This document shows positions 1,358 through 41,900 of a stretch of 64,000 nucleotides of DNA, one piece after another (position 1 is the stretch's first letter; every line of letters starts with the position of its first letter). The position numbers and the translations under genes were made by a program. The notes beneath the pieces are model-generated. The model ran no database searches. It was not told the DNA's origin and was given only the letters and a program-made list of their open reading frames with translations. Where the stretch lies: IMG/VR virus record IMGVR_UViG_2974732664_000001, positions 39,833 through 103,832 of that record; one strand, given 5' to 3'. This stretch comes from a virus (Duplodnaviria; Caudoviricetes).

Positions 1358-4300
1358 TTATTAAATTTATCTAAAGCCCAATTGTATAATGGGTCATCTG
1401 AAGATTTATTTTGAATGATTTGATTTTCGTAATAGCTTCTTTTACTCTTTGAGTCAAGGATTTGTTCATAAGCATGATGAAATGGTGTTGCTTTAAACAT
1501 ATCTCTTGAAGCTTTATTCCATTCAGTATCTGTAAATGGAATATTGTAATCAGAGTAAATACCTCGCTATATACTTGGATCATAATCGTTAAGGGAGCCA
1601 CCTAGGAAAGTATCCAATAGCGATCCTCGAGGCATAATGGAATATAATGCGTATTCCGGAACGGATTTGGCAACGCTCTAAATAGCGTCTAAAGTACCAG
1701 TTTGGGCTGATACTGTCTTAAAGTTATTTAATGCATCGTCGAAACGATAAGGAGTAAATACCTCCCATTTTGTACGTACTGCAATATATGCAAGTAGCTA
1801 CATTAATTTATTATCATCATCAGAATCTGCATATGCACATATTAAGGCAACAGCAGGGCAAACAACTAATTTATATAAAGCAATTTCAATTGCAAGACGT
1901 TTTAATTGCTGACGTCTAAATCTACATAATCTAGCCTGGCTTTCGGACGAATTATCGTACAAATATCTCTGTAATGACCTAGAATTTTTCGCTCTAGAGC
2001 CCAATAATGCACCAATTGCAGAACCTATAGCAACGCCAGCCATAGGACCTACAATAGGCAAGAATGAGCCTAATGCGGCACCTGCTGCAAGACCAGTTAA
2101 GATTGATTTCTTTCTGTTCACCTAGAAGTTCTAGAGGTTTATTTCATCAGAATATCCTTTAGACAACACATTAAGTAATTGTAATCCAGACCTAAATGAA
2201 CCTCCTTTAAACTGCTGAGTAGAATTATCCCATACGGTATCTCCGAATCTCTCTTGAAGCATAAGAGGGAAATATTGTCTATGAACCAAAACTGCGGCAC
2301 CTAATGCGTTTGTTGTGATAGCAGCCTTTTGTGATTCGGTAGCCATACCATCTGCATTTTCTGCATATCTCTCAATTCTAGAATGGAGTACGTCTTCTAT
2401 CTATTTATACTATTTGTAATACTGTTTATCTACAGTAAGCTTACCATTCTCTTCTTTCATAATAGATAGTAAGCTCTTTCCTTTCTTCCACTCTTTAATC
2501 CGCTTTTTAGCCTCTTCTGGATTAAGGATATTATTCATTATAACGTCATCCTTGGTTGTAAACTCTCCATTGTAATATCTGTAAGACATTATAGTAGAAA
2601 TAGCTATAGGTGCCTTAGCACAGAAGTCAAACATAGTAAGTCCACCGAATGCCCAGTTATGAGTTATGGCGTTTATAAAATTGTTTCTGTTTGAATCCTT
2701 CATCTTTCTCTCAAGCTAACTAGCTACATTAAAATGCTCCATTATAAGCATTAAGAGGTCTTTAGAGTTATGGTCTTCTATATATTTTGCGCCCATACCA
2801 TTTTTAACTAAATGATGTAAAACAAATCTAGTGGCAGCGCAAGCGTCAGAAAAACTATATTTCTATCCAACTATAGAATTTACAATATGCGCCCATGTAG
2901 CGGTAGCAAAGCCAGTTCCAGCCACAGCTATATTACAGCCAAGGTTTACAAGTGTTGTAGCAGCTCGGAATAACTAAGCTACCTTACCCATATTAACCTC
3001 TCTACCGAATATATTGACCTACATTCTTGACGAGCGTATATTATATAGATTCATATCCAAGAATTTTCTAGCAGCCTTATATGTATTAGAAGACTTTCCG
3101 GTAACATTTCTAGTGGTTCTCTTAAGATTGCCTATACTACCAGTAATTGATACCTTTTCATGATTTCTATTCTCAATCATATCTACCATAGATTCACATG
3201 TGGCTTCTATCTACTTCTTATTCTTATACTTCTAAGACTAGTTGTAGTACTCTCCAAGTATACCTATTAAATCTGATGATAGCTATGATGCGTCCTTAAG
3301 TCTTCTAGTGTAGTACTATGGTATCATATTAAGCTGTCTACCATCTGGACGTTCTCCGCTTATTTCACTACCGAATGTAGGATCTTTTGAGTTAATAATA
3401 TCTCCAAACTAATCCTGGTCAGACAATGCCTAGTCAATAAACTATCCGTATGTACCATCTTGTTCCCATCCTTTCTCTCCAATACCAACGGTATCTTTAA
3501 AATATTCTCTAAGAGCGCCTCCAGAAGAAGATGGATCTACATTACCAGTTTTAATAAAGTCCCAAGCCATTCTCCATTTACCACTATGTTTTTTAAGATA
3601 TTTAAAGAACGAACCTGTTATCTATGGAAGAAGATAATTGTCTACATAATTTCTGTTTACCTATAACTCGTTAGACTCTTTAATTGTTTGATACGTCTTA
3701 TCATAAAGAGCTTTAAGAGTCTTAGATTTTATAATCTTGTTATACTGCTCAGAATTGTCGTATAATTCCCTTTTTGGCACAAATGCCTATCCATAACTAT
3801 CGTCGAAATCTTTATCAAGTAAATCGTTATTCTCATCAGAGTTAAGATAACCATCTCCTGGTAGAACCTCCATAAATCTGTCGTAGTAAGCCTATTTTGC
3901 TACAACTTTTCTAAACCAAGGTTTAGCCTACCATGATATTTCTCCATCTATATCCTCTACAAGTCTACCAGTATTTCTCTAAAATGTATCAAGATAACCT
4001 GGCTCGTCCTTGTCTCTAAGAGCTGCCAATCTGTGCATTTCTTTATATACATCAGTCAATGAAGATTTAGCATATTTTCTAAAAATTTTTGCACGATTTT
4101 TAGAAAGCTTTTTTAAATCTTTATCCTCTCTTACAGCTTGCTTTCTAATCTTAGCTAACTCTTTGTCTATTTCTTGTATTTTATTCTGTATGGACTTCTA
4201 TAATTTAGAAGGGTTTATATCACCGGTATTGTAATCTCTGTATGTAGACAGTATATTGTACTTCTGTTGCTATAATTCTTCATATCTAGCTCCATGGTCG

Positions 4301-7191
4301 CTAACTCCGTCTACAATTATTGCGTATACAGGTTTCTCTGCTTCATTATCGATAGTTTCCCAAAGTAATGCTTTACCAGTCTCTTCGTTTACCTTGAGTC
4401 TAGTCTTACTGTTTCTTGAGTCCCATTTTCTAAGCTTATTGAAATCGAAGTTACCATCTTCACCTTTAGCCATTTCTTCAAGACCACCACACTCTTGAAT
4501 AATTTTGTTTCTATCAGCCTGCCATCTCTTTGTATCTTTCTTAACTTTATCGGAAGAATTAAAGAGAGTTTCGTTCAGTTTCTAAAGCTCTTTTGCTATA
4601 CGGTATTCTGGAGTTCCTTCTATCTTAAGCTCTCCGTTTATGTCATAATCAGAAGCTAACTATTTCTTTTGTATATACAGGCCTCTAAGTGTATTCCATT
4701 CAGAATCTGTAAGTCTATCAAAATGATAGTTTCCAAACTCGTCTTTACAGCTCTACTTTATGGCTTTAATCTATATCTGGATAGAATCACGTGCTCTCAT
4801 AGTATCTGCAGAAAGATTTGCAAATGCTTCGTAGTATTCTTTCTTATATTTCCTATGACAGTTTTTGCTTAACCAATCATTTACTTCTTTACTCCATTTT
4901 ACACCATCATCACCTTTTGGCTATTCCTTATTAGATGGGTCTAATCCGTATTTGAGATTAAGCTTTTCCATGAACTCCTATCTTTTTCTGAAAAATTTAC
5001 CATAATTAAGGTCTCTTACCAAATAACCTGTAGTAAATCCGTTATCATCAACCTCATAAAGATCAAGAACACTTTCGCCAAACTTAAGCTATTCTTTAAG
5101 CTGCATAAGTTCTACGACTCTGTCATGGGTATCTCTATCAGCTTTATGAGTAGCCTTATCTATAAGATAAGCCATTGCTCTTAAAGATTCATCTTTAGCA
5201 GAATCCATAGAACCTACAGTAGTATAAAACCAGTTTGTATCGTATCCTATAGTCTTAAGGTGGTTGATATAATCTGCTATTGTAGGAGAATGAACATCGT
5301 TACCTATCTATGCAAACCTCTTCTTCATGTTATTAATGAGGATCTCAGACATAAGAGATGTAGCGTCTGCTGCTACAGCTTCAGAACTTTGTACAATCTA
5401 GATTATTCTTTGTATATCGTTAAGTGTAGCCCTATCCTATTGCGGTTTATCCTCAAGTTCTTTTATGAGTAAATCTATTACAGTAGGAGAATTAAGAGCG
5501 CTGTTAATCTCTGATAAAATCTTCTAATATGTACCAAAGTTATCATGTGCTAAGAACATATACTCAGCATCGCTTATAGTCATATTATCTTGTCTTATCT
5601 TGTGTATCTTTTTGGAATCAATAAGAATCTATGGTGCGATCTATTGAACAAGACTAGCTATTGAATAAAATGTGCCTCCAAGTCTATCTTTAAAAGACTG
5701 AACTTGAGATCTAAGTATCTCTATGTTCTCACTCTTATATTCTTCTTGAAGCTAAGATACTTTAATAGCAGCCTATCTTTTTGATAAGGCAGTAGCTATG
5801 TTATTACACATTTCTTCTATTCTCTTCTATGCTATTTCTTCTGAATCTCGTGTATTAAGACCGAGATCGTTATCATTAATTCTATCAACTCGCATAGAAT
5901 TATTAACTTCTGCATAATTAGTAGCTCTAATAAGATCTTCTCTAGTCTACTATATCTAGTCGTTTGATAGTACAGAATTATCTAAAGATTTATATACTTC
6001 CTGGATTATTTTAGACGCCTACAAGCCTTCAAATTTAAGAATAGGTCTATTGAGTAGATAAGACGCAACAGTATTCTAATACAGCTTTAATTGGTCTTTA
6101 TTTGTATTAAATACATTACTGTTTACTAATAATCTAGATAGGCTATTTACAAGGTTTTTTAACGCAAGAATTGGAGCTTTGTTATTCTTTTTATCTTCAA
6201 GAATAGCTCTCTAGTACAGCATGCTTCTTATATCTTGTCTTGTAGCGAATTCAGAAGCAAACTCTTTTTCGTTTTCAAGACAATAGTAAAGACCAGACAT
6301 ATCCATTCTGCTAAATAACTCCTTAGGAAACAACTTGCTAAATATATTAAATACCTTTCTGTTCTAATCTCTGAATTTAATGTCTTCCTTAGTTTTTGCG
6401 TTATTTATAGGATCTGTTGTTATAGCATGCATTATCTCATGTAAATATGTATCAGCTAAATACTGATTAGACACATTGTTAGCCAACTATGGGTCAATAG
6501 ATATTGCGCTTTTTCCATTTACTGTATAAGTCTTCATTAAGCTACCATCTTCGTGATTTTTGAAAACAGTAGGTATTTCATGGAGCTATAAAACTTCTGT
6601 AAGCTTTTCGTTCTATGGAGAGAATAATCTCAACTATGAGAATCTGGAAACAATATCTTTACTAGACTATTCTTTGCCACTCTATAAAGCACTTGATATA
6701 GATTCGCCAAAAGTAGAATATATATTAGCTCTCTTAAATTTGTTTTGTATGCCAATCTTAGACCTAAGTGAAGCAGAAGCTTTTGCTTTTTCTAACGACT
6801 ATCCAAAAGGAAGTATAGGCTCTCCGTTAATATCAATTTTATCCTTACTGATACTATCGCTAAGCCAATCTCCAAAGTGCTTTCTAAACGTCTTTGAATA
6901 TAAATTAGTTTTAGCTTTTATGGCTTTATTTATATCGCCATTGTATATCTACAATAGCTGTTGAAATACTAATGATGGCTAGCCATTTGGAGCTAAATCC
7001 ATGAGATTGCCATTATTAGCATGATAGGCTTTATAGGCTGCTTCCATAGCAGAGTAATCAAGTCCGCGTCGCTGATTTCTCAACTCTGCGGACTTAAATT
7101 CATCTTCTGTCATTGGTTTACCACCAAGTGCCTATATTATATTGTTAAAGCCATCAAAAACATCTTTATTTTTATAATAAGGACAAAACAT
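1354..7191 (-). CDS. large virion cargo / RNAP-associated protein (~1945 aa, code 15) with zincin domain
   Basis: Start MFCPYYKN..., with LAPNGQPS and FGDW segments typical of crAss large cargo proteins. HEIMH at ~6425-6442 followed by EFASEF. All coding fragments share one frame; glycine-rich hydrophobic segment at ~2000-2100; TAA at 1354. Confidence 0.8.
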
Positions 7192-7193
7192 AA

Positions 7194-10100
7194 TTAACAT
7201 TTTTTATTATCATTCGTTTCTTTAGACTCTTCTGATAAAGCGTCGAACTAAGATAGCAACTACTCGTAACTGCCTCCAGTTTTATTTGGATCATCAATAT
7301 CTTGAGATGGCTATTGTTCACTCTGACCATCTATCTACTATATCAAGTCATCAGCAGACTAAGCGTTCTTAGTATCTTCTATATTTGTAATAGCACCATC
7401 AGCTGCATCATACAACATATTTATATCGCCTTCAGCACTTTCTTGTTCATCAGTTTTAACATCGACATCATCAAGTATATATTTCTACTTCTCTGTTTCT
7501 AAAGATTCTGGATTGCTCATAATTTTACCGAGAATATATATCCTGCAAGGTCCAAGTGTAGATGTTATGTTATACTGATTAAGCATAGCTGAATGCGCTC
7601 CAGCTTGCTCTATAACACCATCACCTGTAGACAATATTGTGAAGTTTGTTACATTTGATGAAATTAAATCCTTTACAATAGAATCAACTTTGTCGTTTAC
7701 ATTCTTCTGCAACAATACGTCTGGAGCTTCATCTTTGAGTTTCTTAGAGTATTCTGCTATAAACTATCTGCGTTGAGCTTTAGTTAAATCTGAAGCAAGA
7801 GTATCTTCGTATTCGCTTTCTTTCTATGTGATATAATCGCTTACCTGCTTTTTAGATGGTTCAAACTTGGATATATCTCCATTGAAATGTACAAAACTAT
7901 ATATTCCGATACTCTGTCTTGATTGTATCTATTCAACAATCTGCTATAAATTAGCATTATTGATATTTATATCAACTCCATAACTCTTTATATCCTGTTC
8001 AATCTTATTAATAGGATTAATAGCTGATACAAATTCTACAGAACCATCTTCATTTGTAACCTTGTTGTTAAGTTTGTTATCATTAGGATTTACTTCATAA
8101 TATGAACCATTTATCTTCAGAGGATTAATAGTTGAAGAGAATCTGTACATAACAACTTGCTTAGATTCGTCTTTTTGTTTAGATTTACCATTCTTTTTAT
8201 CTTTAGACAAAGATTCCGTAAGATCGTTTGCATACTGCTCAGCATAATCCAAAAGCTTGTCAGATTTAAATGTGCTAGGCAACTTATTCTCATCAAATAT
8301 AGAAACGCCTTCAGAACCCTACATGAATTCGTACAACTATGTTCCTTTTATCTATAATCCAAACTTAGGAACAATCATGTAAACCCTCTTGGTCTCTAAG
8401 GCTTTATTTTCTTTATTTAAGCCTTCGATTGCACCTGCATATCTATAAACAACATATTGATCTCCTCGTTTGATCTTAAAGTATCTAGACTTAGGTATAC
8501 TTCTAGAATTAGAAACAAGAAGAGCATTAACCTTTTTCTTTATACCATCAACTTTAAGAACGGTTCCTTCATATTTAATAATATCTCTTTTATCTTCGAA
8601 ATACATAGGAACAACGTCGTCATTCTTATAAAGGTTTCTTGCTATTACATCAAGAATATCATTAGCCATCAACTATGCATCTTCTAAAGACTTATGCTAA
8701 TATCCGTTTCTGGTTCTAGAATCAAGAGCTAAGCTAAGAGCTCTATCATACTGGCGTCTATATCTAGGAGGAATTATATCAGAGAAAGAATAAGCGCTAT
8801 TAGTATCGTATGTAGAATAGTATGCATATATAGCTAAATCCCTAGCTACTCTTCTAACTCTTTCAGACGGATGAGTTAATAACTAATCAAAGGCAGACAT
8901 GAGTCTCTACTTCTGTTCTACACCAACATTCATCTATGTCTTTGAGAGCATCATTCTTCCTACGCTTGATCCTTTTATTCCGGTCTGTGGTCTAAGATAT
9001 TCGAATAATTCATTACTTATAACACCATCCTAATCTACAAGGCCTTGAGCTTCATCAGAATCTGGATCATCTATTATATCCTGCATAAGATTAGCAAGGT
9101 TCTGGAATATTGTGTTTCTATCATATTCGTCACCTTCTTTATCTCCATACAGAATTCTTTTATAGTTCCTTTCTATTTCCTATCTATCTCCACCAAATGT
9201 AAAGTCTATAGGACCAGTGTAATCATCTGTAGCCTCAATCTTTGGAGCAAAGTCAAGTAATGCCTAGAATCTTAACATACTCTCTATTGATGAACCAATA
9301 GCTTGCACAACATCATCTTTCATTACTTGCTTGTATCCATCGTAAGGAGTTCCTGTATAATTACCATCCTTATCAAATCTCCACTTTGTATATCCCTAGA
9401 ACTATTCATCAGCATTTAAGCTAGCGAGAGCTGTTCTAAGCAGATTAGCATATAAAGGAGTAGCAGAGAATGTCTGGTTCTACAGTATTCTCTATACAAG
9501 CTCTGTAGAATTATAGAACTTAGAATCTAAGAACAGATTATGGAAGTATCTCATAAGAGCAGCTGTCGTCTCAGTAGGAGTTAACTCCTCTCCAGTCTTT
9601 TCATCAATCTTCTGCTCGTATTTATTTCCGTCATTTATATACCACTCAACCTTATGATCTCCATACTTAAACTGCTCGTATGTATTCTTAAAGTTGATAT
9701 GTGAAGAAATGTTATTACCGAACTTCTTTGTATCGATCTTAGATACCTTTACAAGGTCTGCAAGCTCGTCTGCATATGTCTTTATCTTGCCAAATGATCT
9801 TAACGATAACATTTGATAATACAAGCCAAATGTAGAATCAATATGCTCTATAGCGTAAATACCCTTCTCAAAGTTCATGGCATCTTTCCACTATATGTCT
9901 TTATCATTACCTATGATAAGATTAAATATATCTGCAGTATACTTATTGATGACGTTCTGGTTCTTTTCTCCATCAGACTTTAATGAATCATTGATAGAAT
10001 CAATGATTTCGTCTCTATGTTTCTTTATATAGTCTTCGTTAAGAACATAAGATACGCCACCAGACTTCTTTTTAAATGTCTTATACAAATTCTTTAAACC

Positions 10101-13100
10101 AAGCTTATCAGCAAGATTCTGTCTAGTTACATTAAGAAGATAACTGTATATCTAAGAATGATTGTTTAATTCCTAAGATTTTCCATCAGCCTTAAAGTTC
10201 TTTCCAAATGTACCCTTGGCAGAACCCATTAACTATCCATACTTCTTAAGTATTGGCTAAGCAATAAATGAGAATGTAGCCTTACCCTTTCCTGCTCTAA
10301 GCAAGAAGTTTACATGATTATATGTAGCAGAGTTAATGTTAAGGTCAAAGATATATGGGTCCTTGGCAACGTCCACATGGGCATTAACCATAGCTGACAA
10401 CCAGTCTGAAATACGTTCTCCATCTTCTCCAAGAACCTAGTCAAGGTCATGGAATCCGAATTGATTATCTCCGTATCTCATAGACAAATGAGTAAACTAT
10501 GTAAGAGCCATATTTGTTACATTCAATGCGAATGGACCAATACCGTCTTTACCTGTAGAGAACTCCATCTTACGTCTAGACTGGAATGAAGGAGTAAGCT
10601 CATACATAGATGGTCTATACTCACTTAATCCACTCTTTAAGTGAGGAAGAATCTCTGACTTGATAACATCTGTAATAGTATCAATAGAAGCACGCGCATT
10701 AGAAAAGTTTCTTGTATCAGATATGATGTCAATGTAATTATTGAGCAATCTATTCTATATAGCTCCATAAGAAGCTTGCTACAAAATTTTCTGCACTGCA
10801 TTTTGCTTAGATCCTTTTACCTTGCTAGAGAATATGTCGGATATTTGTTTTTCCTACTCTTCTGTAATTGTGTCTAATTCACCGTTTGTGTAAGACATAG
10901 TAGCAATAAACAGTTTATCGACATCGAAGTCAGAACCTGTCTGAGCAGTAAACTCTCTAGGAACTACTATTGTATCACCAGATTGAGTAGGAAGTACATC
11001 GGCTACTGTCATAGCAAACATAGATGACATACCCTGTGTAGGAATACGATAGCCAATACCAAAAGGTTTAGGGTGAGAATATGATTTCTGTATAGATATG
11101 TTTGTATTTGTATTAAAATCCAAATTAACATTATCTAATAAATCTTTTAATTCTAATTGTAATTTATTGCCAATTTGGTTTTTGTAATCCTAATGTTTAT
11201 CAATTACATCTTTTATTGTATAAACGTTATTCTTCTATAAAATACGTAATAATTTAACAGATAAATTAAAATCTTCTATCTTTGCGTCTAAAATACCTTT
11301 GAGTTGTTTTTGTTCTTCTGTAATATTCCAATATTCTTCAGATTTTAATCCATTAATTACATCGTGATCGATAAGCCACTGTCTCATCATACCATATGTC
11401 TTCTGATATTCTTGAGGAACAACTGGTCTAAAGAAGTTGATAGAAAGCATAACTTCCATACTACCATTCTATGTATTCCATCTAATCTCTCTACCTCCGT
11501 TAAGCAAATGATAATCGCCATCTTCGTAAGATCTAACACTATTATCATCAAAGCCCGTAAAGCCAAATATAGATTGCTGGACGGCAGAGCCTCCTTTGGT
11601 TTGTATATCTATTACATCTTTACTAACTGCAGAGAACACACTTTGCTCAAATACCTTTCTAGACATAAGTGATGCTACAACGCCGCCATTATGAATAATC
11701 TCTTCAGCAGATACACCAAGTCCATTGTTTTTAACGATAGTTTCTACAAGATTTCTTACCTATCTCTAGTTTATATGAGTAAATCTACCTTCATCATTCT
11801 AAGAATAGAATCTATCCTATACTTTGTTAATACCAAGCATAGTCATAGCATTAATACAAGCCATAAGATCAGCTTTTATTTCTCTACCATATCTAGAAGG
11901 TTTACTCTAACCTTGCCAGTCAGCTTTATTTAAACCGTACTTAAGATTATCAAACAAGTTAGAGAACGCAAGTTTAAACATCTGCGTACCAATAGATCTT
12001 TCAGTAGCCTCGTGAGCATCAGTATTAAGCTGCATACGAATTCCGTTAAGATCCTATACTTGTACAGAAAGCTTACTTCCTTCAGTAGTATTAGCTTTAA
12101 CTTCTCCTGTAGATCTATCAATATATTGATCAGAATCATTATTGATTGCATCGTCCATTGTTGTTATATCTCCATCTATAATCTTTACATCTTTATTATA
12201 TGGAGAGTATCTATTCTGGTTATCACCAACTTTAACAGCAGATTCAAATGCTATCATATCGATCTCATTACCATCTTTGTTCATACGATCATAAAGCTAT
12301 CTACCAGACGTACTCTATGTAGCATACTTAAACATAGGGAAAATAGCCATCTTATTATACACAGGAAGATTCTAGAATATACCAGGACCAAGTTCTGTAG
12401 GACTATTACTGAAGTAAGTCATCTTAAGAGGGAATAACTGAAGTTTACTAACCTTTCTGGCTTTCTCTGGGTCATTCATCCAAGAACCATCAGTCTCAAG
12501 GATCTTATAAGCCTCCTCGTCAGAATATCCAGACTCATCTGGCTCTGTAGTCCAGTTACCAAGATTCATACGGATCTTTCTATATAGAGCAGGTCTGATA
12601 CAAACCTATGCGTCTGATACGGTAATCTCTTCGTATGGAGACATCTATTGTTTAGATCGAATATCAACAGCTTCTTTTACACTCTTTGGAGCTTTATCAA
12701 GAATAGATTTATAATAATTGTCTTTAAGATACATCTTAGTAATCTATCCTTCTCTTGTAAGCTTTTCGCCTAACTCTTTAGATTCTTTCTCAACAATCTT
12801 ATCAAACCATTCTGGATTAGATCTAATTTCATCTGCAAGTATTTGTCTTCCAAACTGCGTCTAAACGTCATTTATGAACTTAGATTTAGCTACAATATCA
12901 TTTATGTTAAGAACTGTATACTTGCTTCCTCTAAGCTCTTCTTTACCACTTATTGGATCTTTAAATTCTTGTATCTCCCTATTAGAATATTCTGTTCTAA
13001 GATTCTGTCCTGGAGAAAGTATAGCTCCCAAACGTTTAATCTTATCAGCGTCCTTAGCAGTCAATCTTCTTACTTCCTAAGTACTACCATCAACAGTAAA

Positions 13101-16100
13101 CTTATCGAGAACTTTTCTGTTGTATTGCCACTTATAATAAGCAGGATCTCCAGTAAATACTTTTTCAAGTTCTATAGTAGAGATCATCTCGTTTGCTACA
13201 TTATTAGCTATTGCAGACAATGTACAGTCAGCAACATTACCAGCTTCATCTTCGTAGTAGTCAGATAATACTCTTCCACTCTTTCCGAATCTATTATGAT
13301 AGTAGTCGAGTATCTGTACAGGTATCGCTCTAGGAAGATATGTTTTACCATCAAAATAAACAACCTTTGTAGAACCATCGTCAGATATAGTCTGGAACTC
13401 ATCACTGACTCTAGACATAAGCATATGGTTTATGCCATCTTTTAGCATAGACGGATTTGATTTAACATAATCGTTAAGATCGTTTATATATCTTCTTATA
13501 AGTTCAAATCCATCAAGTTCGTTATCACCTTCCCTTATAGTACCAAGACCGCCATTCTTAACAGGATTCTTTTCTATAGCCTACTGTTTGTTGTAAAGGA
13601 ATTCAAGATATTGGTTAAGATTCATCTCTTTACCATTGTCATCCTTTATCTTTATAGCGTCATAGAAGTATCTGAACATTCCGCCGTTTCCAGCCATATT
13701 CATTCTACCATCCTTAATCTTTCCATGGAAGTTGTCTCTTGCTCTTCCTGGATTATTTACAAAGTATGCTATATTCTTTCTATCGTAGTATTGTTTAAGC
13801 GATTCAAGCTCATCGTTAAAATATCCAACAAATCTATTAAGGGTACCTTCGGAGAATCTTAAGGCATTCCATTTACCAGCTTCATCTGTATGGTTATACG
13901 TAATAAGATCGTGCACACATAATCCGTCAGATAATATTTTTACTTCTGCGTCCTTTGCAAGAGGATCATAAGATATAGAATACCATGTCTTTTTATCAGC
14001 CATTGTAGGGAATACAAGCATGTTGTTATGCTTCATAACCATCTTTGAAATATAGTCTGCAAGAGGTGTTATTCCAAAGTAATCATCTCCAGTATTCTCT
14101 CTAGTATCTTTTATTCCAACAAATGCATTAAGCTTAAACTTGTTTGTATTATCTCCAGGTCTATCTCCAAGCTGATCGTTTCTAGCTATATTAAGAATAG
14201 AACTGTGCTTAGCGTATGGCGACAACATCATCTATTCAACAATGCCATCCTTATTATCATTTATATGACGAAGTTTATCAGAAGCTTCATTATTCTCGCT
14301 TATAGGATACAATGTAGCTCCATCTGGACCCTTAATACTTACATCGGTAGAAGACGGGTTAGTCTATGCATAAACCTCAGCCATCTTTGATATAGGTGTT
14401 TTTAAACCGTATCCAACAAACAGCTAATCAACTGTAACAACGTCCTTATTTCTCTTTGACTGTTTAGTTTCAAGATAAGGTTTTCCCTTATACTTATCAA
14501 GCAAATCAATAAAGTATGACAAAGAACCAGTTTGTTTATTAGTCTTCCATTTGTAATTATTTTTTGAGCCATTTTTCTTCTACATAGAGCCGCCGAGCAT
14601 CATCTATAAGGCCTAGAGCTATGCTAACATAGGATTTTTACCATCAGATTCATCCTTTACCTAATATGTATAAGCATCAAGTGTTTCTCTGTCGAATGGT
14701 ATACCCATGTAGTTAAGGATTTTAACAACCTGTGTAGCGGCTTCATCGTAAGCATAAGACAAATCTTGAATAGTATGTTCATTAAGAACTTTAGAAAGAT
14801 CTATGGCATCCTGGCGCATCTTTACAAGTGTGTCTACATACTCTGGGTTTATAATAGTCTAGCCATCTTTAGAAACAATTACATTAGAAGAAGCAAATTC
14901 CTAACTCCATAAACGTGGCTAGTTTCTCTTTGCCTTGAGCGTATTATCATTTCTTATCTCCCAATTACGCTTCTCATCTGTAGGTATTTCTACTACAGAT
15001 GAAACCATGTCTTCTGGAAGGTCCATGATGCCCATAGATTTTTCTACTGGGTCATTAAGCCAAATCTATGCTACTTGATTATAAGAACTCTTTACTGTAG
15101 CAAGTATCTGGTTTTCAAGCTCTATATCTCCTTCTATTTCTTCAAGCTTATCATTAAGAGCGACAAATAAAGCCATCTTTCTATCAGCGAGCTATTTAAC
15201 TTTACCTCTAATTGAATTAGCTGCAAACACACCAGTATTTTGATCTATATTATCATAAGATTCGCACATCCACAAATTCTTTAGTATAGAGCTCCATGCT
15301 TCGCTATAGCTCCAATACAAAGGAACATCGCTAATAATGTCATTAAACTATGTCTCGTACTCACGTTCTCCTGTTTCTGAGTCAAGAACAAACTTACCTT
15401 TTTCTATAAGACTCAAGAAAAGCTTAGCTCTAAATGCTACATTGTCTTTTTTACTTATAGACAACTACATTACATCCCAAGTATTATCTGCTCTATCGCC
15501 AATATCTCTAGACTGATCGTCGTCGTTTATAGAATCTTTATTTGTAAGATCATTAGTCTCATCCATCTATGAGAATTTCTTTACATTTGCCTTTATTCCA
15601 TACTAAGAAAACACATTGGCTACAATACCTTCAAAAGCTTTAGGATTATTACAGATATCGTTTATTATAGATTGCTTTAACGGATCTGATTCAAACTCAT
15701 TGTTATTCTTTAAATCTTCAATAAGATCATTGAATTTAGATACCTTTTTGCTATTAATATCGTTTGGGGTTTTAAAACCGTAATCGCTTAATAACTTCTG
15801 CGCCAAGGCTACACCACACTGATAGAATGTATGATAATCCTTTATTCCTTCAAGCTTATCGAGAGTAGATTGATCTACAGTAGGAACATAGTAGTCTGCT
15901 GAAGCTACGCCGTTTGGATATCTGTTCTCAAACTCCTTTATAGAGTCTTTGTCCATATGTACGTCAAAATACTGTCCATTATTAATGGCGTTAAATACAT
16001 TGCGTACAATATCTTTCTTTCTGGATACCTTTACAAAATCAAGTATATTGTTATACAATCTCTTGATCGTGTTAATGATTCCCTTTCCGTTTCGCATTTC

Positions 16101-19100
16101 TGCATATCTACGGAAATCTTCAGCCATCAACTCTTCGACTTCTCCGAATGTAATATTCTTTAAGTTGTGTGATTTAATATAAGCATCATATAATCTAAGT
16201 CTCTATGCTTTATTATTTAACAGCAAATTAACGTAATGCCATGCTTCATGATAATGAATACCATATCCAGCCTCATTAGATAAAGTGATAACACCGTTTA
16301 CCTATCTATCTATATAATCTGCTGCAAGACTTGTGATACCATATACCTTACTATTTTCGCAGCTTTTAAGAACACCGTCAAGAACGACAACTTTAGTCTC
16401 ATCTAATCCAAGCTTTTCGCTAAGCCATTTTCTAGCAGCTTTCTCATCAAATTTTCCTTTTGATTTGAATCTAGAGAATACTCCAGTATATCCATCCTAT
16501 CTAACCTTGCTGTTACGAAGTATAGACAATGGATCCTATGCGTTTATATGAAGTTTTCCATTTACACCAACATTAAGTATAGGAACATAGCCCTTACTTG
16601 CAACATTCTTAAGCATAGTATCAGATACAAAAGTAAGATCTTTTACATCAAACTTCTAACCTTCCTAAGAATTGGCATAATCTACATATTTCTATACATG
16701 CTATGCAATAATACGTTTAACTTCATCTAACGATTTACCTTCTACATCCTCTTTGAGTACATCAATTACAACTATATCATATATACCACGTTTTCTATAG
16801 TTGTTTAACACATCTTTTCTAGCATCATCAGACAGAACTAAGAAATCATCTTTAGTAACCTTCTATTTCTATGAATCGCTCTTATATCTGCTCTGCATTC
16901 TGCTTATAGCCTCATCAGTAAATCTCTTTGCTGCTATATTTGCCTCTGCTTCAATTACGCTAGGATTCTCCTATTTTTTGCTTTCCCTCTTTACCTTTGC
17001 TACAGCCTTCTTCTTTGTTGAAGCCTGCACTCCGTCGGAATATATAAATGGTGCGTAGAAATGTTGTGGGGCTAAGTCTGTAAGAAGCTTGCCATTATTT
17101 ATCATCCATGCAGCAAGTGATACCTTTTTAGGATTAAGCTAACCATTCTTGTTTGTAGAGAATAACTCATCTCTCTTAAATTCGAGCTGATTAAGACCAA
17201 AGAATTTATATGATTTAGCTTTAGGATTATTCTCAAAATACTATCTTAAGAACGCAGATAATTTAGGCATAGATTTATTAAAATGTTCGACCATATCTGC
17301 TTTATCTGTGTTCCAGTGTAAATTGTTTGCTATATATCTAATAGTAGACCTTCTTGTCTTCTCAGACTAATCGCCAAACAACTAATCCATAGATAGTTTT
17401 AAATCCTATCTAGTGCCCGGTTTGGTTAACACAAGCTAATTCTTCTCATCGTCGAAATAGAACTGCTTAGAAGCTAAATAAGGGTGCTTTTTATCAGCTT
17501 TAGTAGCAAATGTAGTATGTACGCTTAACGCAAGCAGATCTGCAATCAATCCCTGGTTACCTTCAAATTCTTCTGGATTAATTCTACCAGTAACCATGTA
17601 TAATATAAGCTCAGCCATAGATAGTGTGGCATTTCTATTTATTTTTCCTGTATTTGGATCTATAGCTAACTACATATTAACAGGATCAATAAACTGCATC
17701 TTACCATCTTTGCCCTAAACCTAATTGAATCTTTCTTCTCTAAGCATTACAGGAACAATGTATCCACTAGGACCTGTTATCGTAAAGTACAATTTACCAG
17801 AATAACCTTTACCGTCTATTGTGTCTCCAGAAGGTTTGTAGAGATTACGAATAAGAAATCTATTACCTTCATCAGCCATTACTCCGGTACCATAGCCAAG
17901 TGTTATAGTGCCATTCTCGAGCTACATTGTAAGTTCTTCTGGATCAGAAGGAATGCCAAGATTCAAATCTTTTTCTGTAAGTAGTCTAAAATCAACAAGA
18001 TTATTTTCAAGTTTTGGTCTAGTCTATATTTTACCGTTACTTATACTAGCTTCTTGTGGCTTTACATCAGTTCTAATAGTCTATGGTATTATATACTTAC
18101 CATCTTTAAATGTGCAATACGCTTCAATTATAGCGTTTCTATTATCTCTAAGTCTCTAGATTTGCTGTGTAACCTAATTGTTTGTCAAAGGAACCTTGCC
18201 TGGAAGAGCTGACTTGTTTCTAGTAGTATCGTCTATATATGCACGTATCTAACCGGCGTTTTCTGGATCACTTTCATGTAGGTTGTTATACCAATCTATT
18301 ACTTTCTTATTCAGTTTATCATCGTTTTCCAGAAGAGATTGATCAACATTATTATGAAGTAAGTAATAATTTTTCGCTGTCTCAAACAGATTGACCTTAT
18401 ATGCATCCATATCGACGCCTATAAATTTAAGTTTATTAGCGAGCTCATATGAAAGATCAACATCTGTGTTTTTCTTATACTCGTAATGGTATTTACCTAT
18501 TGCTCTAAGTGCAGAGAAGTATATCTTATTGCCATCTCTTATAGCCAAAGATACTGTGAATAAATCTCTTTCGTCACCAATATTTCCTTTCTGGTATTTC
18601 TGCATCTATGACACAACGTAGAACTTATCAGCTTTTTCAAACCATCCTTTCTATGTAAGTTTCTGTGCAAGTTCTGCACCAGTACCAATAGTACATCCAT
18701 CTGGTAATTTTACATCCTTACCGTCAACTCTTATATCCATAGGTTCTTCTGCATCAGGTCTATAGAAGAATGTATGATCAATGTATCTTCTCTCTATATC
18801 TTCAGACTCCTATACAGCTTGTGGTTTAGGTTTTCTATCATCGTATACTCCAGATGTATCAGTTGACTCAGTTGGGTTATCCATATTACTAAGAGTATCA
18901 GACTCACTCTATATATCTACATCCAACTTTTCTGGAAGATCCTCTATGTTTAAAGTTCCGTTATCATCGTACTTCTTAGGTAATACTTCTGGTTCTTCTT
19001 GTTCTAAAGGATTTTCTATATTGAGCGTATCTTCTGCATCAATACTTTTAGGATCAATAACCTACGCAGTCTTACCTTCTTTATAAGGAACCTGGTCTAT

Positions 19101-22100
19101 ATCATCGTTGCTATCTTCTGGATTGTCGTCAGGAAAGTCCTAATCATCCTGAATTCGTTCAGCACTAAGACCAGTATCAGCAATTGTTTTATCTGGAGTT
19201 AAGTCTGGAGAATTGTTATCGTCTTTCTTTTCTGGCTCATCATCCTCTTGTACCTGCTACTGTTCTATCTATTTCTCTGTATTATCCTAAACACCGGTAT
19301 CCGTACTATTTTGCTAAGCTTCTTGAGATTTTCCTGGCTTTATAGCTATAGCTCTACCGTTATTATCATCATCTTTCTCATCTGTGAAATCAGTAGAATC
19401 TGATTGTTCCACCACGGCTTTCTACTTCTACTGTTTTTCCCTAAGCTTCTACTACTATTTATCTTCAGTAGGGCTCATTCCTAAAGCTTCTTCGAGGTTT
19501 CTTTCATTTTCTGTAGAACCTTGCTGAGAATTATCCATAGCTGCATCAAGCTCAGATGTGTCAAGCACTGACTTATCCTAAGATATTGGCTGCACATTTA
19601 TATCTTCAGCCTCTTTCTCAATATCTGGACTCTTAGGCTCACCAGCAAGATCTTTAATTCTCTGAGTTACTTCTTCATCGGCTGTACCTTCTTCAGCTTG
19701 CTAAACGTCATCTTGTGTAAGTGGTCTTTCTTGATTCCATTCTCTACGAGCTATACGCATACGATTCTTTTTGTCAGCAAGAACTGAACCAATAAGATCT
19801 CTAGCAGCCTTTCTTTCCATATCAGTAAGGCGAAAAATATCATCCATACTCATATTAGATGTGTCGTCATTACCTTCAATCTTATCTCTTAATTCTGCGT
19901 ATTTTTTAGATAGATATTTTATGGAATTTCTCTTCTTGTTCTACTCATTCGAGTATGCCGCTCTGACCTACGCTTCAGTTGGAGATTGTTTGCCTTGCTC
20001 TTGGTATAAACCCTATACCTTTTTAGTGAACTCTGACTTTTGCTCATCTGACAATTCGCTCCAGTTCTATTCTCTTCTAGAAAAATACACGGATCTAGGG
20101 TCAACTTGTCCTGTAGTAAATGCTACAGACATTGGCTTTAGCACATTGAATAAAGCGTCGTTTATAAGAAATGCCTAATAAGCATTGTCTATTTCATCCT
20201 GGTTATCAAAGTCCTAGTAATATTCAAAGATTGAGTCATATGTTATCTTTTTATGCTATTTCTCCTTGTCACTTATAGAGGCATTTAACAAATCAATCTT
20301 TTCATTGTATGCTAATATATCTTTAGAATTCTCTACTTCATTCTTTCTGTTCTATACAAGCTTATCAAGGTAATCAATCATACCGGTAAGCTTGTCAGTA
20401 TTGATATCCGTTCCTGTTTCATTAGATATTAACTAAAGCCTTCTTTTTTGATCCTTTAAATCTTTAGCCAACTTCTAAGCTGCCTTATACAATCTATAGG
20501 TGAATATTGATTCAAGTCTAGACTATATATATTCATCCTCTGGACCAACCTTGAACTCATCACGCTCATTCATTGCGTTTTCGATAGCCTCATCCAAAGG
20601 TATTCTTTGTGGATCATATTCATAATAAGCTTCATTATTATCATCTTCATAATAAGCTTCATTCTTATCGATCCACTCTTGACCAGCTTTCTTTCCTTCT
20701 TCAGAGTTCTTGAATTGATTTCTTCTATCGTTTATAAATTCATTAAACCTCTGGTATTCCTGCTCTATTTTATTAATAATATTAGATAGCGTTGGATTGT
20801 CTTCCTATACAGTCTTATTTATTATAGAATCAATGTTGTTTCTAGCTTTCTCGTAATCTTTTGCTGCGTTATTAGAATCTATCATGACTCTAACAGCCGC
20901 TTGTACGAGCTATTTATGATCTTCACTATTTCTAGAAATGTTTAGATCTTTCATAGACTGTTCAAGGTTCTTGTTGTTGTATGCAAACCACGCAGCATTA
21001 AGAAGCTCTTTGTCATTCTCTATATAACTATCTGAGCCATCTTGCAATAAAGAACCCTTGTACTTTTTCATATCATCAAGAGACGTCTGTAGTCTATCTT
21101 TATTTACGCCAGCTCTACTAAATGCGTCAAAGAATATTCCTATATGATCATTATCTTGTGCAAGTTGATAATTATTAGCAGCTATACTGCGAATAACATT
21201 ATCATTTCTAAGCTATGCTACAGTATTTCTCAAACTATACTTATCGCTTGAGCTAAAAGGGCTAGTACTACCTTCTCTGTATGGAGCTAATAAGTTTTTA
21301 ACATCATGAGGAATTCTGAACAGTAATCCTGTCATAGCTCCTATTTCCATAGATCTCCTTAATTCTGCATCACCATTATCTGGGTCTCCAGATGATATTC
21401 CAAGATAAGCTGCTGCAGCATCTACGTTCAAGAACAGGTTATCAAATACACTTGGCAAATAAAAAGAAGACTCACCTGTTGAGTAATTATCATATTCTCC
21501 TCTTTTAAATCTAGATGTAAGTAACTACTGTTTACCTTCTTCAAGAGCCTCGGATGTAGCAAGAGGGAATAATCTTTCAAATTTCTTTGCAAGATATTTT
21601 GAACCATGAACAAATTTGAGCCTATCACCTATATTGCTAAATTTACTCATAGCTACTCTATCTATAGCATTATCTATGACTCCAGTAGCGGCAGCTTTTG
21701 TGGCCTTGTCTAATACCTTATCCTATATGTGCATCTTTGGAACTCTAGAAAACACGTTGTTAGCAGCTTTAGATATCACTCCTCTCGTATAATCCATAAA
21801 AGGTAAAGCTTGTAAATAATCCTCGAACGCCATTGCGTTATTATCATTTATAAGCTTAGCTAAACCCTTTCTAGAGTCTACTTTAATCTTATCGAAGTTA
21901 GCATCACCTGTAGGTATATTGTAAGCTAATGCGAGCTTTACTTTTTCAATCTAATCAAGGTCTTTTGAATCTACGCCTATACGCTTAGAATACTAATCGA
22001 CAGCATTAAATACCTTGCTAAAATCTACATCTGTTTTATATGAAGAATCCAAAACTCTTTGTGCTAAAGCATTTATAGCTTCACCATTAGTCTCCGACTA

Positions 22101-23525
22101 GCGCATTTGTTTTGTCCAATATATTTCAGCTGCAGCAGTAGAGCCACCTATTATTTTTCTAGCAGTTTTTACTCTACTTAACACATTAGCAACTTGATCT
22201 ACATTTTTTGCAGAATTAAAAGCTTTTGCCATATCTTCAGCAGTAAGTACAATGCCTAGTCCAGGAATCTTTCTAGTAAGGAATTTTACAGCTGCTTTTG
22301 TAGCCAATGCACCACCAGCATTAGTTGCTATCATTCCTGCGAAACTTGCAGCATCGCTATATGATGTACCTATCTCTGGTACTAAATAACCCCATTGTGT
22401 AGGGTCGATAATAGAACCAATTAAACCGCCTCTATTCTGATTCTAAAGGTCTCTAAATTCCGGATTAATCTTCTTAGGATCAAATAGCCAATTACCATTT
22501 TTATATTGATTTATGGCTGATCTTAACGAAATCTCCTTCTTGTTCTGCTCTCTGTCAAGATCGGTTTTTAATGCATTTATCTTTGTCTACAATAATTGTG
22601 ATCCATCTTTTGTTAAATATCCTTCAAATAAATTATCGTAATTACTAGTACCATTCTTTATAGCACGCTTAATAAACGTTCCACTTTTATCGCCACCAAT
22701 TGCCTAAGGAAGAACACTACCTATAGCATCCCATGTAGTAAGTGCTATATTCTAAAGACCTTCAGATAATGTATCAGCTGTGTATTTTAATGCATTAATC
22801 ATAGTACCAAAAATACCATTGGTATTAAACTACTAATGAGTGACTAATGTATTATCTTTAAGAGCAGCTAAATAATCGCTAGCCCCAGCTTTATTTGTAT
22901 CGTAGAATAAATCTAAAAATACGTCGTCATTCTTATGCTATTTAAAGAAATCTTGGTATTTCTTAACTTGATCATCTACCTTTATAATAGCATCCTATAA
23001 TTGTCTAGTCTATTCCTTTGAGGCGTATCCATGACTCTTAAAGGCTCTATATTGATTTATGAGATTCTATCTTTGTTTTAGAAGATTATTGTAGTCCTAA
23101 GCTATTTTTAGAGCACACTATTGGAAAGTAATATTATCAAGCTCTTTTTCTTTAGAATCTACGTAGGCTCCATACCCTTTCTCGAATGTAAGCCTATACA
23201 TATCCTTGAAAGAGAATTTGTCCCATCTCTCTTTCATCTTGTTTAAGTCCCAAGAATCTCCTAAAAGGAAATCGCCAAGGGAACCACTATTGCTTTCTTC
23301 TGTATCTACAACAGCTTTACCATGTTTATCAATCGTAGTATACGCAGGGAATGTCATATTATTAAAATCACTGACATCTGTATAGGCGCCCATACTCCCC
23401 TCAACATAAGGAGCGGCGTAGTCAGCACTTCTTTGTGCTACACTACGCTGTAAATCCTACGCTATCTAAGCTCCTCTACTATACGCCTAGTTGTATGTAA
23501 ACGTCTTTTTATTTTTATTTGCCAT
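7194..23525 (-). CDS. virion RNA polymerase polyprotein (~5443 aa, code 15)
   Basis: About 20 ORF-track fragments share one frame, and where read they are separated only by TAG. Catalytic GSDFDVD at 10917-10931 and GYRIPTQG; zincin HEAWH at ~16240 followed by EELMAEDF; acidic linker at ~18800-19700; ends ...NKKC-TAA. Confidence 0.85.
11100..11282 (-). other. RNAP alpha-subunit CTD-like (HhH) domain inside the virion RNAP
   Basis: KIEDFNLSVKLLRILQKNNVYTIKDVI...QIGNKLQLELKDLLDNVNLDFNT matches the RpoA CTD pattern by eye. Confidence 0.7.
20621..20664. repeat. short tandem duplication encoding NEAYYE twice
   Basis: tcataataagcttcatt occurs twice with a 27-nt period, in frame within the polyprotein. 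Confidence 0.7.
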
Positions 23526-38900: not shown

Positions 38901-41900
38901 TGAACGACAAGTTCTTGTATTGCCCCTATATCTATGACCACTGAAGCGTCTAAATCTAACTATTGTCTACAGAGAAACTGGTGATATTAGTACAGTTTGT
39001 TATAACAATACTTGCTCCTGGGTTTTTAATATTACTAACATTAACAGTTGCTACATTTAAACCATTCGCAGTTAAACCCATTTTTGATCCGCTAAGATTA
39101 ATAGAGCTTAGGTTCGGATAATTGTCAGCTCCATTAAGTGTTAATGTTGCAGTATAACCAGGTGATGTTAAATTGATCTCCTTAACGCTAGGTGTATCAA
39201 AAGAGAAACTTCCAAATGTATTCGAAGAACCGTTTATTGATTCAAGTTTATCAGACCCAATGTACAAACCAGTCTAAGCATTTCCTTCTATCCAGTTTAT
39301 ATTTTCAAGATAAGACCATAGCTAAGAACCTCCAACCTTAACACCTTGCACACCGGTTGTTTTAATGTCGACCTATTGATAATTATCTCCACCAATTATA
39401 TAGTTTGCAATAACCGAGTTAGCCTTAGTAATCTGTAAAGGAGAAAATTTAGGACATTTAATCTTAAAGCTAGCATTTGAACCAAGCTGAATACCGGCAG
39501 AAGAACTTCCAGAAGAGAATATGTCTCTAAGGATAATTATATCTTGATTCATAGGTACAGAATAGTTTGCGGCGTTATAAGTAAGATCGTATACGATGTT
39601 TTCAACATTTGGATCGCTACTTAGATTTATGTCCTTCCACTATCCGTCATCATCTCTATATTGTATAGGAACACCTATGCTTGAGTTAATATTAAAGTAT
39701 GCATCAAGGATGTGCAATCTACCATTAAACCAATCTCTTACATAGTTGATTCTGGTTCCGTTAAACTTCTGGTAATCAATAGGATTCCATTGCGTACCCG
39801 AACCATCGAGTGCAAGATATTTAGATCTATAGTTGTATGTTACAAGTAGGCTATTTATAGAACCGAGATTATTAGCGTAGAAATTATCTACAAAATAATC
39901 AGCATTTTTTAGAATGCCTTCGTGAGTCTTGTTGTTTATAACATTACTTCTCCATTTTGCATACAATTCTTGCGGATAGTTAACCGTATACTATTCGTCG
40001 TCCTTAAATATTAATCTTGCATATTTAGCGACTGCAAATAAATATGATGAAGGAACATCGAATCCGTTTGACCCAAGTGTAGATGGTGAAAAGTCTCTGT
40101 ATATATTTACATTATCTGGATAATCAACACCGTATTGAGTTTTCTTTAATTGTCCATCCCAATAGTCTGAGAAAGCAAAATAAGAAATTTTACCACCGCT
40201 ATTGTTAATACCTAAACATGTATCCATATCATAGAACGCTGTTACCCAAGTTGTACCAGCAGAATTCTTGCCAGACCACGTCTTAATATTAAGATTCTTC
40301 ATTACACTATCAACAAGACCAAGAACCATACATATTGTATAATACTCGGATATTGACTAGAAGTTTAACTCTGATGGCCTATTGTTATCCATATCTGGTA
40401 TACAAAGATCTCTTAAATTATTCTGTGTTCCAGGACTAATAGTGCTCTTCAACACGTATTTCCAACTTGAACCATCAGATCTTCTTTGATACTATTTAGT
40501 ATAATCTGGAACCATATTTAATGATTTTCCAGTTTTGTTTCCGGATTCATCAAGCTCTTCTGCAGAATATCCATTTTCATAAGAGCCTCTTACCTTCTTT
40601 AGGTAGTCAAATAAATAGCCACCTCCAAGCGTCACTGATTTTACTAGCTTTTGTATAGATTCCTACAGTTCTGCTTCAGAAAAGTTTGAGCCATGAACAA
40701 GGTCTCCAAACATGTATGTGTTATCGTTCTCTTTGTTCTGCTAAAATAATATAGTAGAATCATACTGTGAGAAGTCAAAGTAGTTAGAACCGCCCTAAAT
40801 TTCAGCAACACCAAGACCTTCTCTCAACGTATTATCATCGTTATTTATTTTATAAAACACAAAGTCTTTTCCGCTACCAGTTAATGTAGTCTTGTCACCA
40901 AATACTCTAAGATCTTTATAGCCGAGATTAAAATACGACTCACGACCAAGGTTAAAGTTATATACTCCAAAGTAATAATAAACGTCATCTTTGAGCCCTG
41001 TATCAGGATTTTCTGTAACAATATGCATAAACAAAAGTATAGGAAATCCCTCAAGGCAGTTCTTTATGTACGGCTTAAATACACTATCTTCACTAATACT
41101 ATCGCTAAATTTTTCACAAACTGTGTTTACAAACTTTCCGCAAGTTGTATTATTTGAGTGAGAGCTATCAACGACATCAGCTTTTAATGTAAACTACGTT
41201 TCTGGTAAAAATGTCTCAGGGTTATTTTGATTGAAATTAGGAGAATACAAGTAAACGTCAGCAGTTTCAGATTGGTCTGTATTTTCTATTTCCAATGTAA
41301 AGTTTTTTACTCTATACAATTTTGTAGAAGAACCTTGTAACGATGCCCTAAACTGTGCATTAGTAAACGAATCTGGTACCTTAACTTCTGTTAACGCAGA
41401 TCTTCCAGGACTCCATTCAATTGATACAGGGAAATTAAGATCGGATCCTTCACCGGTTCCATCCTCACCATAATTTTTCTCGAGCCTCTATATCATTGGA
41501 GTTCCGGTACCATTGTCTTGGCACGTCATAACAAGAACAGGAGTTGACGTATTTGCAGCAATATCGCTAATTGTTGCACCGTCTATAATAATTCTACCAT
41601 TTGTTCCAACATTAAACTTTTTTAAATATTGCTTTAAAATAAGTTCTTGCTAAAACTATTCGCTTTGTTCGCGAATTATCTCATATCTATATTTAAGATA
41701 ATATTGATATACGTCGTAATCTCCATTTTCTCCAATATCAGACACAGGAAGATAATCAACATCTATTGTGTTAATGTAAACGTTAACTGGATTTATCTGC
41801 AATTGTTTTACAATCAATGGCGCGTTGAACAAACTAGAGAATGACGCCTCCATTCTTCCATCAATATATATAGAAGTGTCATAGTATGAGTCATTGCCAT

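Follow-up and report, generated by a model that had tools for sequence, protein, structure and literature searches.

The closest described system is gp66 of Cellulophaga phage phi14:2 (6VR4), which belongs to a class of early-gene RNA polymerases (RNAPs) that are packaged in the virion and in some phages are fused with neighbouring proteins into a polyprotein. By itself gp66 transcribes single-stranded DNA (ssDNA) far better than double-stranded DNA (dsDNA), and its early promoters share no common motif (Drobysheva et al., bioRxiv 10.1101/2020.03.07.982082). For crassvirus virion polymerases, the question is by what means early promoters on dsDNA are recognised. The DNA analysed here, called the window, comprises 64,000 nt (positions 39,833 to 103,832) of IMG/VR virus record IMGVR_UViG_2974732664_000001, which is complete at 103.8 kb, has terminal repeats and represents a gut crAss-like phage. 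It encodes a gp66-type polymerase that carries, inside its catalytic barrel region, a cassette homologous to the C-terminal domain of the bacterial RNAP alpha subunit RpoA (alpha-CTD). Full-text literature searches for alpha-CTD or helix-hairpin-helix (HhH) together with crass-like polymerases returned no paper linking them, and the key papers make no mention of such a domain. Domain and enzyme are each known already; what is new is their combination, which has not been described and hints at a mechanism. A detachable alpha-CTD provides a concrete handle on the promoter question, and the optional cassette may explain how the polymerase finds promoters.

An internal cassette in the catalytic barrel region

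Residues ~3414-4618 of the window polyprotein align with gp66 (E 2.2e-21), and the alignment includes both barrel motifs and the catalytic site. The gp66 family carries a DFDxD catalytic motif with Val or Ile at the fourth position, and the window polymerase has DFDVD. The two proteins differ in the interval between the aligned barrel segments, which is 63 residues in gp66, a protein without an alpha-CTD, and 159 residues in the window protein. From this homology and from the position of the gene in a block of virion and transcription genes, we infer that the window polymerase is packaged in the virion and transcribes early genes. The gene and the parts of the cassette region are as follows, in window positions.

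7194 to 23525, minus strand: open reading frame of the virion-RNAP polyprotein, 5,443 residues, open only with TAG read as glutamine (148 in-frame TAG codons)
11085 to 11333, minus strand: net 83-codon alpha-CTD cassette, residues ~4065-4147, with a 7-residue linker in its place in short-allele relatives
11112 to 11318, minus strand: folded alpha-CTD-like (HhH)2 core, residues ~4070-4138, from a predicted model with a predicted local distance difference test score (pLDDT) of 87-91
11319 to 11348, minus strand: N-terminal tether, residues ~4060-4069, with pLDDT <50 at its start
11079 to 11111, minus strand: C-terminal tether rich in Asn, Thr and Ser, residues ~4139-4149, with pLDDT 46-60
11235 to 11237, minus strand: in-frame TAG within the cassette, Q4097
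11190 to 11192, minus strand: in-frame TAG within the cassette, Q4112
11031 to 11054, minus strand: GYRIPTQG barrel strand motif, residues 4158-4165, just downstream of the cassette
10917 to 10931, minus strand: catalytic DFDVD motif, residues 4199-4203

The cassette occupies a loop of the second, DFDVD-bearing double-psi beta-barrel, directly upstream of GYRIPTQG. The original prediction, made from the letters of the window, quoted a peptide from this loop as a captured host alpha-CTD. The peptide is present verbatim at residues 4082-4142 (window 11100-11282) in the frame that reads TAG as glutamine. It lies before GYRIPTQG as described, its end is 57 residues before DFDVD, and both of the TAG codons said to hide it from standard annotation are inside it. 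The segment was also said to be more AT-rich than its flanks, and here the prediction was modest. The 272 nt that differ from short-allele relatives contain 21% GC, lower than every other stretch of that length across the window (mean 34.8%, sd 3.5), and GC at third codon positions is 16% in the cassette stretch compared to 28% for the whole gene. The cassette is compositionally foreign.

The cassette is homologous to alpha-CTD

With TAG read as glutamine the window copy matched the alpha-CTD family PF03118 at E 6.9e-5. This match is significant, though its score of 22.9 bits is 0.9 bit below the Pfam gathering score of 23.8. Cassettes at the same site in two relatives, L008 and L009, scored 37 bits (E 2.4e-9). 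Since these cassettes exceed the cut-off and are 55-56% identical to that of the window, the window copy was counted within PF03118 by transitivity. NCBIfam rpoA equivalog models gave E values down to 1.4e-5 on the window copy, with the C-terminal ends of the models only, and 15 of the 19 matches in a plain phmmer search of the PDB were RpoA CTDs. A profile of ten same-site cassettes (A3) was then compared with the PDB. Its best 33 matches were all RpoA CTDs, with the match spanning the whole CTD. The best two, from Flagellimonas taeanensis (9n9p, E 1.7e-6) and Porphyromonas gingivalis (8dkc, 7.6e-6), are both Bacteroidota RNAPs, in keeping with the predicted likeness to Bacteroidota RpoA. A four-sequence cassette profile searched against 1.8 billion representatives found 622 proteins at E<=1e-3, and PF03118 was present in all ten of the top library matches that were scanned.

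Structure prediction agreed with these searches. Two template-free AlphaFold2 (AF2) models of the cassette have the same helices (residues 12-21, 32-40, 46-56 and 62-74 of the modelled piece), with core pLDDT 87-91 in the better one. In a VIA structural search of the AF2 model against representative structures, the Bacillus subtilis alpha-CTD 1z3e_B ranked first (Z 9.1, root-mean-square deviation 1.6 Å, 64/67 residues) and Escherichia coli RpoA 4mex_A second (Z 8.9), while other HhH/SAM-like folds were ~2 Z units lower. The top ~40 Foldseek matches were all alpha-CTDs. Because the Foldseek E values are not significant alone (best 0.036), we relied on the uniformity of that list and on the VIA Z-scores.

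The cassette could in principle be a generic helical insert that resembles alpha-CTD by chance and has no homologue among alpha-CTDs, since the window copy alone is 0.9 bit under the Pfam cut-off and the Foldseek E values are ~0.04. This explanation is effectively refuted by orthologues that score above the cut-off, by a profile search that was specific for RpoA, and by a VIA fold match above all other folds, and we consider it negligible. Because the Pfam, NCBIfam and phmmer matches, the same-site orthologues, the profile searches and the predicted fold all agree, we regard homology of the cassette to alpha-CTD as established.

The alpha N-terminal domain (alpha-NTD) families PF01193 and PF01000 had no match anywhere in the polyprotein. 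Because there is no alpha-NTD and the domain is internal to a gp66-type polymerase, the cassette is classified by its sequence as a member of the domain family and not as an alpha subunit. Its likeness to RpoA CTDs (1z3e_B, 4mex_A, 8dkc_A, 9n9p_A) covers domain family and predicted fold, an LSV[R/K] first hairpin, a G-x-K second hairpin, a Bacteroidota-like C-terminal helix-turn, and flexible tethering to a polymerase. Whereas the RpoA CTD follows the alpha-NTD dimerisation domain, the cassette is tethered at both ends within a single-chain two-barrel polymerase. It also differs by a three-residue deletion before the second hairpin, by the lack of Gly279, and by changes at four of seven DNA-contact positions.

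Origin of the cassette

The best PDB matches and a C-terminal motif in common with Bacteroidota RpoA place the cassette, by sequence, in the Bacteroidota type. It is 21-29% identical to cellular alpha-CTDs, and two of its seven glutamine codons are TAG, which is the gene's own rate. Because of this low identity, the TAG usage, and the three-residue deletion common to phage cassettes, the cassette is not a recent capture from the host. The idea of a captured host alpha-CTD therefore survives in family and in Bacteroidota type but not in the sense of a recent acquisition.

A tree of the domain (82 columns) did not separate RpoA from regulators of temperate phages that combine HTH_17 with alpha-CTD as the source, and the HTH_17 form and RpoA are equally close relatives of the cassette. 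These proteins of ~300-330 residues (P0053, P0097 and P0099; loci L090-L092) consist of HTH_17, a coiled coil and a Bacteroidota-type alpha-CTD and are among the closest single-domain relatives (46-51 bits). They are phage-borne like the cassette; unlike it they are stand-alone proteins that carry the domain at the C-terminus and keep Gly279 and the full-length loop. The alpha-CTD is thus traded as a module among Bacteroidota phages, in virion polymerases as well as in temperate-phage regulators.

In P0097 itself (327 residues; relatives P0053 and P0099) an N-terminal HTH_17 and a coiled coil precede a C-terminal PF03118 alpha-CTD. Loci of this type (L090 6001-6984, L091 5264-6247, L092 2687-3670) lie on temperate phage-like contigs between an S24 repressor/integrase module and RecT/YqaJ, and their products look like an apparently uncharacterised class of alpha-CTD-based phage regulators. 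PF03118 was promiscuous in the library matches, occurring in architectures with TPR, sigma region 4, helicase and HTH_17. Matches with unexpected PF03118 architectures were P0003, P0009, P0014 and P0025/P0029. The domain was seen in 11 tandem copies in a 1,031-residue protein, in four copies after a ResIII helicase, in two copies with sigma-70 region 4, and in two copies at the end of a large group of ~445-residue TPR proteins.

Gain, loss and exchange of the cassette

A tblastn search with the 96-residue cassette against 50,697 phage records returned only noise (E>=6), its sequence being either too diverged or of too low complexity for this kind of search. Relatives of the cassette were reached solely via the conserved flanks. 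The cassette is present in the IMG/VR relative L003 (98% nucleotide identity), while L004, L005 and L006 (93-96%) have a 7-residue linker at the site, a net difference of exactly 83 codons. L020, which is on the same contig as L004, has the short allele even though its flanks match the window at 100% over 502 protein columns. Spacing between the two flanking motifs is bimodal among the 53 analysable loci, at 110-119 residues in 14 and 13-33 residues in 39. The cassette is lacking in phi14:2 gp66 and in most crassviruses. The aligned relatives make it a lineage-specific insertion inside the catalytic barrel region rather than an ordinary part of the crAss RNAP core, as the idea of a graft implies.

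To trace gain and loss, a tree was built from the flanks alone. The long state required six changes on this tree, at least five of them forced by well-supported branches, and the five-member clade of the window (support 100) contains two long and three short alleles. Since the linkers of distant lineages resemble each other, the short linkers are not deletion scars. Natural long and short alleles with identical flanks are ready-made isogenic controls.

Synonymous changes between L008 and L009 affect 20 of 54 sites in the cassette compared to 32 of 190 in the flanks (Fisher p 0.002). Synonymous divergence between L011 and L014 is likewise higher in the cassette than in the flanks (p 0.04). This excess over the flanks, together with the foreign composition, points to recombination within the conserved flanking motifs as the means by which diverged phages exchange the cassette. 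Sliding mismatch counts around the indel revealed no extended recombination tract, with the junction bin alone elevated. An exact 32-mer from the cassette was found in IMG/VR solely in the contig of L003, and no near-identical donor cassette was identified there. Omega is 0.07-0.16 in the cassette and 0.03-0.12 in the flanks, so the cassette is kept by selection where it is present. Domain-sized cassettes can thus be exchanged inside an essential barrel without disturbing it. In a 126-residue library match, P0007, the first part of an L009-like cassette follows an N-terminal half of unrelated sequence; the contig is probably chimeric or the frame wrongly called.

A second insertion site

Beyond the same-site cassettes, the best single-domain matches are the polymerase fragments P0011, P0165 and P0169 (53-60 bits). 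All three have a short linker at the site used in the window (site B) and an alpha-CTD ~75 residues upstream, in the loop after a GGSAVQQS-type motif (site A). The corresponding part of the window is a single feature.

11502 to 11594, minus strand: GGSAVQQS strand motif and site A loop, residues 3978-~4008; the loop is short in the window

The site-A cassettes of P0011 and P0165 score 26.1 and 24.4 bits against PF03118, above the cut-off. In the domain tree, site-A cassettes are nested within the site-B clade of the window (support 98). They share the window-type three-residue deletion and the loss of Gly279 relative to cellular alpha-CTDs. Because of this nesting and the common changes, one phage cassette has been placed in two neighbouring loops. 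Judged by these alignments and trees, it behaves as an optional module that passes between crass-like phages and lies in one or the other of two loops depending on lineage.

Site A can also hold a different insert. In L025 (722-1207) it is occupied by an HhH-like domain that resembles RAD51D_N/HHH_5 (E 1.8e-5), which suggests that an HhH module is selected for at this barrel face. The site-A insert of L033 (1001-1525) was missed by Pfam and found by the cassette profile only (E 3.6e-5, small search set); it is divergent and is classed as alpha-CTD-like only.

Possible functions of the cassette

The original prediction suggested that the domain could bind AT-rich, UP-like DNA at early promoters, or act as a recruiter or decoy of host transcription factors. 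The residues expected to contact DNA were compared using E. coli alpha numbering, in which we take the contact positions to be R265, N268, C269, N294, G296, K298 and S299. Two features of the window are needed for this comparison.

11253 to 11255, minus strand: K4091, counterpart of E. coli alpha R265; Arg in L008, L009, P0004 and P0005
11163 to 11171, minus strand: G4119-N4120-K4121, counterpart of G296-K297-K298 in the second hairpin

In the window these seven positions read K, R, I, Q, G, K and L, so that three are kept or conservatively replaced (K4091, G4119 and K4121 for R265, G296 and K298). Among ten window-type cassettes, nine have Lys or Arg at 265, with Arg in four relatives, and G296 and K298 are invariant. 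Because both ends of the modelled core are low-confidence tethers (pLDDT <50-60), the domain is probably mobile, as it is in RpoA.

The tethers, the kept residues at 265, 296 and 298, and the poor activity on dsDNA of gp66 alone, whose early promoters have no known motif, lead us to favour, with slightly less than even confidence, a role for the cassette as a nucleic-acid contact on flexible tethers, which would help the enzyme to engage promoters. The basic residue at the R265 position and the G296/K298 hairpin would hold the backbone or minor groove of AT-rich duplex DNA. From topology, the domain would be expected on the upstream face of the barrel close to the RNA exit, at the location of the dock in beta-prime and Rpb1. 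A single-chain polymerase that is poor on double-stranded templates could thereby make contact with the early promoters of phage DNA after its injection. A bolder version is that the mobile alpha-CTD cassette gives a single-chain, sigma-less virion polymerase bacterial-style promoter finding, through UP-element-like DNA or class-I-type activators bound upstream. Early transcription would then be retuned to particular hosts when the cassette is gained, lost or moved from one loop to the other. We consider this version doubtful; if true, crassvirus early transcription would gain its first identified promoter-recruitment element.

By sequence topology, the cassette site presumably coincides with the position of the beta-prime/Rpb1 dock, next to upstream DNA and the exit of the RNA. 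Insertions in the beta-prime/Rpb1 barrel (the Rpb1 dock and the bacterial beta and beta-prime inserts) are likewise the size of a domain and would fall between the same strands. At the RNA exit, the dock serves as a platform to which factors bind. Unlike the cassette, it is not HhH and is not optional within a species.

Several points weigh against a DNA contact at promoters. The counterparts of N268, C269, N294 and S299 are changed to R, I, Q and L, R265 is Lys in the window, and the net charge of the domain is about -1. Bohxovirus-type cassettes are without the second hairpin motif, yet they are under purifying selection. Since a phage with 100% identical flanks does without the cassette, it is non-essential for transcription. 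The upstream, RNA-exit placement is an expectation from beta-prime/Rpb1 topology and not from coordinates. In a different role, the cassette would mimic the alpha-CTD hub of the host and recruit a host or phage transcription factor, or titrate one when the polymerase is abundant late. The alpha-CTD is the classical activator hub, and substitutions at over half of the canonical DNA-contact positions fit a docking module. The best argument for docking, or for functions that differ by lineage, comes from the Bohxovirus-type cassettes, which remain constrained although their second hairpin is lost. Docking would also fit PF03118 as a promiscuous adaptor joined to sigma region 4, HTH_17, TPR and helicase modules, and the nearest non-polymerase relatives include early-region regulators of temperate phage-like contigs. 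Presence or absence within a species and repeated gain and loss fit host-specific adaptation. However, all window-type cassettes have the three-residue deletion in the '287 determinant' region used by activators such as CAP, and there is no known candidate partner. A decoy role early in infection is unlikely as well, because few polymerase copies are injected. We regard docking as the main alternative, possible but not probable.

The much better activity of gp66 on ssDNA than on dsDNA would also suit a domain that touches the new transcript in the exit channel, or else the non-template strand or the ssDNA preferred by this class of polymerase. Topology would put the insertion at the dock region beside the RNA exit, and two neighbouring loops are able to host the domain. 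But alpha-CTD and (HhH)2 domains bind the duplex backbone in known cases, and the cassette has no RNA-binding sequence signature, which together make single-strand binding improbable. Alternatively, the cassette may be a tolerated passenger that recombination has carried into a surface loop able to accept it, with no role beyond harmless folding. Its dispensability in near-identical phages, its foreign composition and its patchy distribution are what a passenger would display. An omega of 0.07-0.16, near that of the polymerase core, is difficult to reconcile with this explanation, as are retention in at least five lineages that are just ~45-57% identical in the region and re-placement in a second loop. 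Purifying selection for foldability only is possible, but it leaves the conserved surface Lys and Gly unexplained. A passenger is in our view quite unlikely.

Polyprotein organisation and genetic code

The nearest named relatives of the window polymerase belong to Suoliviridae (Bohxovirus, Blohavirus). Reading TAG as glutamine is supported by the 148 in-frame TAG codons, by TAG columns that align with CAA or CAG in relatives, by homology to known polymerases that continues across the TAGs, and by a CUA-anticodon tRNA encoded in another part of the genome. A tRNA search of the 64-kb window found none, and this amber-suppressor-type tRNA is located upstream of the window at genome G000:C1 9123-9194(-). 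A permuted transfer-messenger RNA called by ARAGORN, with the tag DNVNNIVDYTNVA, is also upstream of the window, at G000:C1 20629-20985(+).

In Bohxovirus sp. 'endotrachealis' (L001; PV686213.1, record 10165-14241) the polymerase frame contains 8 in-frame TAA codons in addition to 14 TAG codons. All six of the alignable TAA codons match TAG or CAG/CAA in IMG/VR relatives that are 88-93% identical. Either TAA is also read as glutamine or the assembly has systematic G-to-A errors at TAG. To our knowledge, TAA read as glutamine would be new for phages.

A Pfam scan of both halves of the polyprotein found no further domain at E<=0.01 except weak noise. One further motif lies N-terminal to the barrels, in a region of the polyprotein that Pfam does not recognise.

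16236 to 16250, minus strand: HEAWH zincin-type motif, residues 2426-2430 of the polyprotein

The motif region is consistent, by sequence, with a fused gp65-like protease. Fusion of gp65-, gp66- and gp67-like proteins into a single polyprotein is a published observation for some crass-like phages, and the presence of HEAWH in the polyprotein fits it.

Introns in the catalytic motif have been reported for crass-like phages (Yutin et al. 2021, PMC7886860). In L006 (IMGVR_UViG_3300045988_076858, 2147-3047), a relative that is 93-96% identical, a ~900-bp group I intron interrupts DFDVD at the point that corresponds to window ~10928-10933. It matches RF00028 in two parts (E 7e-10 and 3.8e-6) split by its 233-residue open reading frame. 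The polymerase fragments P0165 and P0169 break off at this same point, and the window copy is intron-free.

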